Below, in pieces: positions 2,746 through 11,961 of a stretch of 64,000 nucleotides of DNA. The notes beneath the pieces are model-generated. The model saw nothing but the letters and a program-made list of their open reading frames with translations, had not been told where the DNA came from and did not search any database. This stretch comes from Stegostoma tigrinum (lineage: Eukaryota): assembly GCF_030684315.1 (NCBI RefSeq), contig NC_081391.1:21040629-21104628 (forward strand). Reading direction: 5' to 3'. Made by a program: the position numbers and the translations under genes. Position 1 is the stretch's first letter. Every line of letters starts with the position of its first letter.

Positions 2746-5138
2746 ATGGCTTCCCGAGTGTGTCAGAACTACCACAAGGACTGTGAGGATGCTGTTAACA
2801 AGCAGATCAACCTGGAGCTCTGTTCCTCCTATGTTTACCTCTCCATGGTGAGCTTTGTGGAATTGAAGCCTGTGTGATAACAGTGTTGACCTGTTTGGGG
2901 TTTTTATGCTGGGTTAATGACTTAGCCGTAGCATGTATTGTTTTCTGTGGCCCTTCCCCTGATGCAATCTCGTGCAAGTCCTAACACTGACTGTCTATTC
3001 AGTTTTTGAACACTGTCTTAATATACAACTGGCTCCTGGGTGTGGATCCCCAGTTGTCCATCTTGGGACAGTGTAGCCCTTGGTGATTGTTTTCATTGAA
3101 CTCTGGAGGGTTGAGCTGGTTTTGCTGATAAATTTAACTTGGTTATATCCCTTTTTCTTCAGAAAACCTTCCCTGGTAGGACACAAATGTATCCTTTTGT
3201 TTGAACCTTGCCCCATTTGCCAGACTGGCTTATGTTCAAGATCTAAAGTTCCCTTAACTAAAGACAGCAACTGCTGGAAATCAAACAGCAACAAGAATAG
3301 CTAGAAAAGTTCTACAGATCTGCAAGGAATGGTGGAAGAAATCCGGTCAAATTTTGGGTCCACTGACCCTTGCTCAGTGTGTTTTGTGAGCTATGAAAAG
3401 TGGCACACACTTGAAATATTAACTCGTGTCCAACAAAGCAGTTAGAATTCTGTGTGGAGTGGGTGGTAGGACACTAGGGTTATTCAGGTGGGTGATGGTG
3501 ATAATGAGGCTGCTGACTGAGATTTCTGGCTGTGTTAATGACTGACTGCATTATTCATAGCATTTCATTCAGTTGGATAGGGGCCTAACTAGTCTCCACC
3601 TCGCGAACAATAGTGTTTTATCACCTGCAGAACAGGGATATCTAATAGCTATAGACAGCTGTCCCCTTCATTGTGCACCATGCCACACTCTATCGCACCA
3701 TTTTAGCAAAACACAGGTGAGGGATTGCATTTGGTTTTTGTTCTCTATTTCCAGAAGTCTGGCTAAGTATCTGTTACATGGGTTATAATCCATGGAAGGT
3801 GACTTCCTGGCTCTCTCTAGTTTTGCCCACTTAAATGTGGAGTCAAGATGGTAACTGGGTTAGTATCTGAGAAGAGGCATTGATGTATTTCAGACATTTC
3901 CCTTTATTGCCTCTTTCCCCCGACAGGTCTCTTACTTTGACCGGGATGATGTTGCCCTGCGTCACTTTGCTGAGTTCTTCAAGGAGCAGTTCCATGAGGA
4001 GCGGGAACACGCTGAGAAACTGATGGCTTTCCAGAATAAACGTGGAGGCCGAATCCTCCTGCAGGACATCAAGGTTGGATTCCAAAGCTTTCTTTTGCAG
4101 CTTTTTGTGAAATACCACTCCATTGTGGCTAGCTCAATCTGTTTAGCTTCAGGACTGAGCAAATACTGTATGAATAGGGGGGTTGCTCACCACAATACGA
4201 TTCCCTTCACTAAAAGGAAACACTTTTGCACGTGATTGAACAATAGTTGGCAATTGTGATAATCCAGTATTCTGGATGGTGAGCAAATATCGGTGTCTAC
4301 CGCTGCTTTGGACAAGATGAGGTGTCAAAAGGGAAAACAGAAATCTTTCAGGTGTGGAAAGCATCAGTATGAAGCCTTAATACATCTAGCAGATGTTTCC
4401 GATGCCTTGTGATTACTCTGATCACAGCATAGCAGGATCTGTTTAGAAATGTCCCCTTCAAGAACAGTACCAAATACAGCAGGTGTTTCACCAAGGTCAA
4501 GTCGGCCTGTAGTACTTCCCCGACAATGATGAGGGATAATTAACTGATCAGATGTAGACTAATGATACAACTGCCTGCTGAGCTGTGCTTTCTGTTCCTG
4601 CTTCCCTCCCTCCAGAAGCCAGAGCAGGATGAGTGGGGCAATGGTCTGGAGGCAATGCAGAGAGCTCTGCAGATGGAGAAGGATGTGAACCAGAGTCTGC
4701 TGGATCTGCACAAACTCGCCTCTGGCCACATGGACCCTCATGTGAGTGTGGTGTATTAAATCAGGGATTTTGAATTAAAAACAGGGATCAGACACTTGGT
4801 CCTTTTCGTTAGCCACAAGATCTCCTTTGACATTGTGGAGGGTTTTCTTGGGTTATACCAAGATCATCCTGTTTCTAAAACTGTGCACTTTCTCGAGTGT
4901 ATTTGGCAATCTCCATGACATCACTTCACTGTTTGGTCTCCCAAGCTGTATTTTGTTGGATTTAACCAGTTCCCCTCTTTGCTTTCTCCAGCTGTGTGAC
5001 TTCCTGGAGAGGCACTACTTGGATGAGCAAGTGAAGATGATCAAGAAGCTGGGAGATCACATCACCAACCTGAAGAGACTGGGAGCCCCTGACAATGGCA
5101 TGGGAGAGTACCTGTTTGACAGGCTCACACTCAGCTGA
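2746..5138 (+). CDS. ferritin subunit (M / heavy-chain-B-like), copy A, 173 aa
   Basis: join(2746..2847,3927..4073,4616..4741,4992..5138), GT-AG introns. [173 protein letters not shown]. Frame is intact but the TATA box is degraded. Confidence 0.9.
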
Positions 5139-5210
5139 ATGGGGTCAATATCTATATCTGTTGTACATGGTGACGTCATTCTACTAAATGACTAGTTGTG
5201 CTCTGAGCAA

Positions 5211-5216
5211 ATTAAA
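5211..5216 (+). terminator. putative polyadenylation signal ATTAAA
   Basis: ATTAAA lies ~70 nt after the stop in every complete copy: also 12030, 17151, 23830, 30689, 37890, 43014, 49695 and 56532. Confidence 0.6.
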
Positions 5217-9384: not shown

Positions 9385-9494
9385 ATTGGTGCCTGTATGC
9401 AGGGGTGGTTCCTGATTGGCTAGCAGCAACTGTCAGTCATCATCAGTTCTGCCTCTCTCTGTGTGACTGCAGGATGGTCCCAGGACTATAAATA
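9385..9494 (+). promoter_or_regulatory. core promoter of copy B: two inverted CCAAT boxes and a TATA box
   Basis: ATTGG at 9385 and 9415 (30 bp apart) and TATAAATA at 9487-9494, starting 77 nt before the ATG. The same TATA occurs at 21409 (D), 28133 (E), 35351 (B'), 47272 (D') and 53978 (E'). Confidence 0.7.
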
Positions 9495-9563
9495 CAAGAG
9501 CCTGTGGGAGAGAGAGACTTAGTTCTAGAGTTTTCTTGCTGCTTGTGAGCAGGAATAGTGAAG

Positions 9564-11961
9564 ATGGTTTCCCAAGTGTGTCAGAACTACCACAAGGACT
9601 GTGAGGATGCTGTTAACAAGCAGATCAACCTGGAGCTCTATTCCTCCTATGTTTACCTCTCCATGGTGAGCTTTGTGGAATTGAAGCCTGTGCTATGATA
9701 GTGTTGACCTGTTTGGTTTTTATGCTGAGTTAATGAATTAGCTGTAACATGTATTATTTTCTGTGGCCCTTCCCCTGTTGCAATCTAGTGCAGGCCTTAA
9801 CACTGACTCTCTGTTCAAAACCTGAACATTGTCTTCATGTCCAACTGCCTCCTGGATGTGGATGCCCAGCTTGCTGTCTCTGGACAATGTAACCCTTGGT
9901 GATTTTTCATCTAACTCTGGAGGGATGATGTGGTCTTTGTCAATAACTAAATTTTAAAATTGGTTGCATTCCTTTTCTCAACAAAAGCTTTCCCTGGTGG
10001 AAACTTTTCCTGACACAAATATACTCCTTTTTGTTTAAAACCTTGCCCCATTCACCAGACTGTCTTGTGCTCAAGATGTAAAGTTCCCTGAACTAAAAGA
10101 ACAGCAGCTGCTGGACACTAAACACCAACAGAAAAGCTCTAAACATCTGGTTGAAAACCAAGCTCTGGGTCCACTGACCCTTTCTCAAGTGGCTTTGAGC
10201 TATGCAATGTGAGGAAAGAGGCACACTTTCACACTATGTATGTGATTTTTTTTTTCTCTCTCTAACAAAGCAGTTAGAATTCTGTGGAGTGGATGGTAGG
10301 ACACTGGGGTTATTCAGGTGGGTGATGGTGATAATGAGGCTGCTGACTGAGCTTTCTGGCTGTGTTCACGAACACATGTCCCTTCATTCAGTTGGACAGG
10401 GGCCTAACTGGTCTCCACCTCCTGAACAATAGTGTTTCTAACCTGCAGAGCAGGGATGTCTAATGTCTATAGATAGCTCTCCACTTCATCAGGCACCATG
10501 CCACATGTACTGTCTCTCTTTCTCGCTCACACAGGCCAGGGATTGCATTTGCTTTTTGTCCTTGATTTCCAGAAAGCTGGTGAAATATCTGCACAAAGGC
10601 TGCTTTAGTATCTGTTGTTTGGGTTATAATCCATGGAAGGTGACTTCCTGCTTTGCCTGTTTTTTTACCACTTAAATGTGGAATCAAGATGGTGCCCAGG
10701 TTATTTCCTGAGTGAGGAGTGTCATTCACGAATTTCAGACAGTTTCCTTTTAACCTCTCTCCCTCCCTCCCTCCCTCCACAGTTCTCTTACTTTGACCGG
10801 GATGATGTTGCCCTGCATCACTTTGCTGAGTTCTTCAAGGAGCAGTCCCATGAGGAACGGGAACACGCTGAGAAACTGATGGCATTCCAGAATAAACGTG
10901 GAGGTCGAGTCCTCCTGCAGGACATTAAGGTTGGATTCTGAAGCCTTCTGTTTGTGTAGCTCTTTGTGAGCAGCTACAATCGACTGGTATCTCCCTCTAT
11001 TTAGCTTTAGCATTGAACAAATACTGTATGAAGGGGAGGTTGTTCTGCAAAATAGGCTTCCTTTAGGTGACAGGAAATAATCATCAATTGAGACTCACCA
11101 GAATAGTGAGTAGATATCAATGTGAATGACTCTCCTTTAGACAGACTGAGGGAACAAAAGCTGAGACAGGAAATTGTTGCAGTGTGGAAAGTAGCAGTGT
11201 CCAGCCTTTCAGAATCTAGAAGATGTTTCTAACACCACAATCGTGAAGCCTATTCTCTGCATGTGAATTGAGAATCGACATGAACAGTAGAATGTGTTTA
11301 GAAAATTTCTTATTCCCTCAGTACAAAATCTAGTTGTCTTGAACAAATTCAAGTTTGTTTGTAGTACCTCCTACAATGATGAGGGATAACTAACCGATGT
11401 AGACTAATGATACAACTGCCTGCTGAACTCTGCTTTCTGTTCCCACTTCCCTCCCTCCAGAAGCCAGAGCAGGATGAGTGGGGCAATGGTCTGGAGGCAA
11501 TGCAGAGAGCTCTGCAGATGGAGAAGGATGTGAACCAGAGTCTGCTGGATCTGCACAAACTGGCCTCTGGCCACATGGACCCTCATGTGAGTTTGTAAAC
11601 TGTATTCTCTCTCTTCCTTGGAAGAAAGTGATGTGTTTGTGCACTCTCTCTTGGTTTAAAAATCCAATTACCTTCTCCCAGCCTCCTACCGGCTGGTAAA
11701 ACCTTTCAAAGGCATCACCTAAGTGGACCTCCACATGGTGGTGATGGTCGCGTCTGTCATGGGAAGTCACTTTCAGACACCTTTTTGATCCTCTGGATTA
11801 ATTTTGTCTTCCAGCTGTGTGACTTCCTGGAGAGGCACTACTTGGATGAGCAAGTGAAGATGATCAAGAAGCTGGGAGATCACATCACCAACCTGAAGAG
11901 ACTGGGAGCCCCTGACAATGGCATGGGAGAGTACCTGTTTGACAGGCTCACACTCAGCTGA
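9564..11961 (+). CDS. ferritin subunit (M / heavy-chain-B-like), copy B, 173 aa, intact
   Basis: join(9564..9665,10783..10929,11461..11586,11815..11961). [34 protein letters not shown]... with canonical splice sites. Equivalents of human H ferroxidase residues E27, Y34, E61, E62, H65, E107 and Q141 are present. Confidence 0.95.

Follow-up and report, generated by a model that had tools for sequence, protein, structure and literature searches.

Homogeneous coding sequences beside unalignable introns in a giant ferritin gene array of the shark Stegostoma tigrinum

How can the genes of one array keep closely similar coding sequences when the introns between their exons can no longer be aligned? 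This question is raised by a stretch of 64,000 nt of Stegostoma tigrinum DNA (NC_081391.1, here C50, positions 21,040,629–21,104,628), hereafter the window, which carries ten four-exon ferritin units matching Pfam Ferritin; the closest solved structures are middle-subunit ferritins. Window features are given in window numbering, and all of them lie on the plus strand. The window sits inside an array that spans 1.6 Mb and comprises about 250 ferritin genes, of which 123 are intact. Their coding sequences (CDS) differ from one another by about 5% at most, whereas the introns and most 3′ untranslated regions (UTRs) no longer align. We propose, with a probability of about 0.7, that short DNA-level conversions and unequal exchanges between selection-kept homology islands homogenise the coding parts of this array.

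The pattern was first noticed in copy A (2746–5138; CDS exons 2746–2847, 3927–4073, 4616–4741 and 4992–5138; an open frame of 173 amino acids) and copy B (9564–11961; CDS exons 9564–9665, 10783–10929, 11461–11586 and 11815–11961; intact, 173 amino acids). The initial annotation had described exon 4 as identical over 147 nt, synonymous sites included, and exon 3 as differing at about one site, and our counts agree: 0/147 differences in exon 4 (4992–5138 versus 11815–11961), 1/126 in exon 3, 3/102 in exon 1 and 8/147 in exon 2. The two reported types of intron 3 were likewise recovered. Intron 3 measures 250 nt in A (4742–4991) and 246 nt in the headless copy C, as against 228 nt in B (11587–11814), 214 nt in D and 217 nt in pseudogene E; alignments between the A/C and B/D/E types score at shuffle level (z −1.6 to +1.0), those within a type at z 21–37. 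The description of the neighbouring introns as unalignable holds for intron 3 and has to be given up for introns 1 and 2 of A and B, which align at 83% and 75%, with the final ~90 nt of intron 2 at 90–94%. Homogenised exons, too, is a phrase that fits the coding part only, because the exon-4 3′ UTR of A (5139–5230, 3′ end approximate, with ATTAAA at 5211) is 86% identical to that of B next to 100% in the preceding coding sequence; the homogenised unit is therefore the CDS and not the exon. Copy C (15871–17078; exons 2–4, with GG as the exon 2 acceptor) had been cited as evidence of conversion for its near-consensus exons, a reading that we abandon: C is a young A-type derivative with exons 1.4–4% different from those of A, and since its introns are 92–95% identical to A, these exons need no conversion. 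Outside the window, exon 4 of B (138 nt) recurs unchanged in 3 of the 68 intact copies without an alignable intron, 0.76–0.89 Mb away and on the opposite strand.

The observation is confirmed, and it is stronger across the array than in the window. A survey of 1.764 Mb around the window, containing one 33-kb N gap, gave 250 exon-3 matches and 225 units with at least 3 exons; the 123 intact copies carry 110 distinct CDS. Single-linkage clustering sorted 195, 223 and 223 introns into 24, 19 and 25 families, respectively. Among 7,503 pairs of intact copies, which are not independent of one another, 5,510 have no alignable intron at all, and these differ at a proportion of synonymous sites (pS) of 0.101 and of nonsynonymous sites (pN) of 0.032. 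The comparison of synonymous with intron divergence that had been suggested for single pairs, when run array-wide, gives a clear result: pS climbs from 0.013 at 98% intron identity to 0.035 at 89% and 0.094 at 81%, and then plateaus at 0.10 while the introns pass beyond alignment. From the array to three single-copy ferritins pS amounts to 0.56–0.73 (a fourth was skipped because of gaps).

Codon usage does not account for this homogeneity. Four-fold degenerate sites are 91–96% conserved, those ending in A/T as well as those ending in G/C, and as conservation holds whatever the base, codon optimisation is not its cause. In a related organism's orthologue of the ferritin bearing an iron-responsive element (IRE), 9/9 CDS differences among the matches listed fall at third positions, and in the same comparison 20/157 and 5/89 intronic bases differ (about 6–13%); synonymous sites of ferritin are therefore free to change. 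Within the array, minor alleles of copies with unalignable introns show linkage equilibrium at distances above 10 nt, the ratio of observed to expected being about 1.

Residues specific to this lineage have spread across the intron families. Ala118 is found in 103 of the 123 intact copies and in 16/19 intron-3 families; position 118 is Ser in 27/27 hemiscylliid proteins and in the majority in every other order sampled. The base causing E159D is present in 121/123 intact copies and in all 19 of the intron-3 families; it is absent from the 27 hemiscylliid proteins, from 2 of the 4 retrocopies covering the site and from contigs of two other organisms. Three further candidate markers were set aside, Arg6Cys since Cys6 is common in other orders, and Val82Ile and Leu162Met for their ambiguous polarity.

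The same conclusion emerges from a tree of 124 shark proteins of six orders, chosen from 224 labelled ones by leaving out fragments, array-2 types (see below), batoids and unclassifiable tails. For residues 1–165 it requires 5 changes of order, which is the minimum, against a shuffled mean of 66.7; on the same tree the C-terminal tail type changes 36 times against 40.8 when shuffled, and short and long tails occur in all six orders. Protein identity is 92.5% within and 86.5% between orders, whatever the tail. The cores thus group by order and the tails are common to all orders, which is coding-restricted concerted evolution; the grouping by order is seen at the protein level, and the intron families are known here from one genome.

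Where the homogenised segments end was determined for 496 pairs among 34 representatives in 5-nt bins. Identity is 83–100% in most exon bins and reaches background 10–15 nt from the splice sites and 5–10 nt past the stop codon. Of these pairs, 49 have an alignable 3′ UTR, including 35 between long-tail copies. The 5′ UTR can be aligned in 329 pairs, at ~76% identity, and is no better kept than the untranscribed promoter, for which the count is 419. Alignable introns are most alike beside the exons: ~90 nt before exon 3 are 87–100% alike in A (4525–4615), B and pseudogene E, compared with 60–83% for the remaining intron 2 of A, and in array 2, a second ferritin array of this chromosome, an identity gradient extends 50–80 nt into the introns. 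Precise intron loss was found in 0/641 introns. In the proposed comparison of tract ends with splice junctions, homogenisation thus runs 50–90 nt into some introns, which favours DNA.

Individual exchanges can also be traced. Pseudogene E (28207–30616) has a stop in exon 2, a lost intron-3 acceptor, and a B-related intron 3 but an A-type 3′ UTR. Between it and its repeat E2 (54052–56461), 8 of 9 exon-4 differences fall within 28 nt (56431–56458), an apparent conversion tract in which 6/8 restore the B allele; in intron 3 and in the part of the 3′ UTR that aligns, the two are 100% identical. Short templated tracts occur in the wider E family of pseudogenes as well. In a test of twin pairs, in which non-CpG differences in exons were compared with those in held-out flanks, the exon/flank ratio was 1.76 for broken pairs (115 pairs) and 0.78 for intact pairs, and 288/444 of the non-CpG twin differences are alleles present in unrelated backgrounds, compared with 46% by chance. 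A first version of this test (exons 1.8 times flanks, p 4e-21) was dropped, as the twins had been chosen on the very flanks used. Larger exchanges produced chimeras: copy g187 has its sequence swapped from exon 3 through the 3′ UTR, intron 3 included, and 11 of the 47 intron-2 types have more than one intron-3 partner type. Copy g266, considered as a recipient from a headless donor, was not convincing. Old pseudogenes do drift: one family lies 8–15% away from B, and dead copies therefore escape homogenisation. This family, with at least 15 repeats, occupies C50:20.02–20.46 Mb and is accompanied by ~22 isolated exon-3 copies that lie ~1 kb away on the other strand.

The array thus displays homogeneity bounded by the coding sequence, alleles that have spread laterally, chimeric genes and templated tracts, and the exon-focused gene conversion put forward by the initial annotation is supported by several independent tests, namely the synonymous plateau, the lineage-specific residues across intron families, the order-wise grouping of proteins and the tracts in pseudogenes. 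As to mechanism, purifying selection on the ferritin protein would hold first and second codon positions alike, so that exons would stay above the identity threshold for recombination and third positions would be carried along. Introns and 3′ UTRs may have fallen below this threshold long ago, which would have let them escape and keep their old separate lineages, and copies that die would drift out of the exchange pool. Of the two templates offered, exchange of DNA between homology islands fits better and complementary DNA (cDNA) comes second; DNA is favoured because of the stop-codon boundary, the homogenised intron edges, the chimeras and the absence of intron loss.

Several results weigh against this explanation, besides the non-independence of the pairs. 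Exons differ in pS, with 0.079 and 0.051 for exons 3 and 4 against 0.112 and 0.151 for exons 1 and 2. Homogenisation showed no relation to distance over 0–1.5 Mb (rho −0.01, 496 pairs), and local DNA conversion would tend to decay. When separate exon and intron trees were built for the right sub-array, as had been suggested, exon 2 still tracked the intron-2 type, with 7 changes, the same number as the intron itself; these exon trees rest on few sites and are in part resolved arbitrarily, which inflates their counts of 12 and 17 changes. Asp159 is also found in 11/12 Heterodontus proteins and is hence a homoplastic marker. Over all 433 twin pairs the exon/flank ratio is 0.98, so that exons are not more variable than flanks, and other backgrounds yielded no convincing run of alleles diagnostic for pseudogenes. 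Finally, array 2 is homogenised throughout its 3′ UTR: among 16 copies sampled this region shows 96% identity, and a level of ~90% is maintained up to ~40 nt from where AATAAA starts.

Some of these points are what would be expected if cDNA of germline ferritin mRNA, made by long interspersed elements (LINEs), were a main donor overwriting the coding exons. The absence of a distance effect and the 3′ bias, with exons 3 and 4 best kept, suit such a donor, as do the end of array-2 homogenisation near a possible cleavage position, the lack of any observed pseudogene donor and the ovary-specific expression reported in the part of the Greenland shark account drawn on here (bioRxiv 10.1101/2024.09.09.611499). 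The raw material exists: all 7 processed copies examined (L181–L187; on C11, C5, C2 twice, C43, C17 and C11), drawn from 150 scored among 1,689 candidates, trace to the arrays: 6 to array 1 (83–97% identity) and 1 to array 2, with 0/7 of those fetched tracing to the two IRE-bearing ferritins; array cDNA is therefore made in the germ line. The youngest is 97% identical and has a long-tail 3′ UTR; L186 stops short of the polyA site. Yet the 3′ UTRs of array 1, which any polyA-primed cDNA would carry, are mostly unalignable, and the 5′ UTR is kept only at promoter level; intron edges are homogenised over 50–90 nt with none of the introns lost, intron-swapped chimeras require DNA exchange, and the 3′ bias follows pN without being monotonic, since exon 1 is better kept than exon 2. 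We therefore regard cDNA as an unlikely main donor. The bolder proposal is that LINE-reverse-transcribed oocyte ferritin mRNA has been a major template, exon by exon, for hundreds of intron-bearing genes over more than 250 My; this would be RNA-mediated concerted evolution of a megabase array in a vertebrate, with array 2, where homogenisation extends roughly to the polyA site, as the clearest case. It appears about as unlikely.

A history free of exchange would combine birth and death of whole genes with strong synonymous constraint and unusually fast intron turnover. Recent whole-unit duplications are evident, and slow synonymous change is hinted at by spliced array-type contigs that join all four exons in sequencing runs, presumably of RNA, from two other organisms: across the four exons they differ from B at 15 letters (~3%), and one of them also has a 5-nt stretch replaced, which is as much as separates B from its own distant paralogues (mean 18/513 differences). 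This history is nevertheless improbable, as selected promoters have diverged by 24% between families against a pS of 0.10, tail types are common to six orders while cores group by order, and neither the linkage equilibrium nor the lack of codon preference fits. An artefact of assembly or polishing, in which the commonest read overwrites exon bases, must be considered in so repetitive a region, where an unplaced contig repeats part of the array and allele calls are made from assembled sequence alone; the number of distinct CDS among the intact copies, copy-specific alleles common to sister repeats and the same within-order homogeneity in proteins of twelve other shark species make it highly improbable. 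The contig concerned, C216 (267 kb), bears the same units as the right sub-array and could represent either an alternate haplotype or a stretch that the assembled array lacks.

As to the remainder of the window, copy B has a TATA box and a short 5′ UTR (9487–9563) and, in its 3′ UTR, ATTAAA at 12030; copy D (21486–23761) is intact with B-type introns. Four of the ten units, B-C-D-E, recur as a 25.8-kb block at 98% identity, the second repeat (33311–57986) matching 7482–32147 and containing B2 (35428–37821), C2 (41732–42941), D2 (47349–49626) and E2. The next copy (62156–63455; exons 1–2, A-type promoter) is truncated by the window end. In A-type copies TATAAA is replaced by TAGAAA (2670 in copy A, and 62080). 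Between units lies an interspersed repeat (1–632, 14591–15212, 26372–26993 and further copies; types ~76% alike) that by eye resembles the 3′ end of a LINE.

Throughout the array, seven ferroxidase-centre positions are kept in 122/123 intact copies. TATAAA is present in 89 of these copies; in the other 34/123 it is absent within 120 nt of the ATG, and such copies may be weakly expressed. A 36-mer from exon 3 matches the genome exactly at 188 places. The middle sub-array (C50:20.46–20.92 Mb) consists of large inverted arms (g132–g147 versus g148–g164; g115–g131 versus g165–g182), and it is here that most unique intron families and most long-tail copies are located. No IRE was found anywhere in the window, and a genome search yielded 2 IREs among 82 candidates scored, both at single-copy ferritins, one flanking the array and the other on C20. 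Three divergent single-copy ferritins, one with an IRE, adjoin the array at C50:21,570,745–21,609,459 (exon identity 75–83%) and stay unhomogenised despite a distance of 15–55 kb. Array 2, of a different ferritin subfamily, occupies C50:12.99–14.40 Mb, where 148 matches include well over 100 to exon 4. Its genes are middle-subunit-like with 176 amino acids, and by a rough parse their CDS differ from those of array 1 by ~26%; in a sample (L188–L200) exons are 94–99% and introns ~70–77% alike. The ATG of array 2 follows an apparent splice acceptor. In rays, ferritins of this kind from a single species lie on several contigs of different lengths, a hint that the copies are dispersed and not in tandem.

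Comparable systems are known, here as far as the cited parts of each source describe them. In mammalian KRTAP1 repeats the coding sequences evolve in concert and the flanks radiate, with the switch at start and stop codons; purifying selection, codon adaptation and reverse transcription are dismissed there as causes, and short conversion combined with selection is preferred (bioRxiv 10.1101/282418). Array 1 also switches abruptly at the coding edges (array 2 differs, its 3′ UTR being included), but KRTAP1 comprises four single-exon genes whereas the shark array has about 250 four-exon genes over 1.6 Mb, with retrocopies, and each exon of 100–150 nt is therefore its own homology island. For the HMA4 triplication of Arabidopsis halleri, a model of divergence-dependent interlocus conversion with purifying selection yields nonsynonymous below synonymous below intron divergence, and a synonymous plateau while introns keep diverging (bioRxiv 10.1101/2025.10.29.685298); there, three young copies have alignable introns, unlike the about 20 intron families beyond alignment in the shark. 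The X-linked ferritin-like loci FTHL17/FTHL19 of mammals show lineage-specific concerted evolution (PMC2724270, PMC5363321), with few copies, homology over whole loci and weak GENECONV evidence (PMC2724270), in contrast to single coding exons in the shark. The Greenland shark is reported to have clustered ferritin copies, 155 plus 179 in number, which date back at least 250 My, share synteny with white shark and are expressed specifically in the ovary (bioRxiv 10.1101/2024.09.09.611499); we liken them to the present array by description and not by orthology. In the main text of that report neither 'conversion' nor 'concerted' occurs, and the passages drawn on here do not describe the exon/intron contrast. 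A literature search, to which most subscription journals and bioRxiv supplements lay outside, found no report of conversion in shark ferritin arrays. The encoded proteins resemble vertebrate M/H-type ferritins in the Pfam Ferritin match and the kept ferroxidase-centre positions, and the 24-mer assembly and iron oxidation typical of that group would be predicted for them; they differ from them in the lack of an IRE in the window, the 173- and 176-residue tail types and the very high copy number.

A giant array and the mechanism are each already known; their combination is an unusually large test bed and an extreme case. Its about 250 copies stand in about 20 ancient intron backgrounds, some copies are dead, retrocopies serve as dated fossils, the same chromosome has a second, independent array, and other sharks have orthologous arrays. 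Taken together, these make tract length, the identity threshold for escape and DNA versus cDNA donors directly measurable. It also carries a warning, as synonymous divergence (dS) or protein trees will date an ancient ferritin expansion as recent and lineage-specific. For the biology of sharks, the finding suggests a ferritin supply that has no IRE and is probably ovarian: by analogy with the Greenland shark, the array may provide the ovary with ferritin at high dose and free of IRE control.

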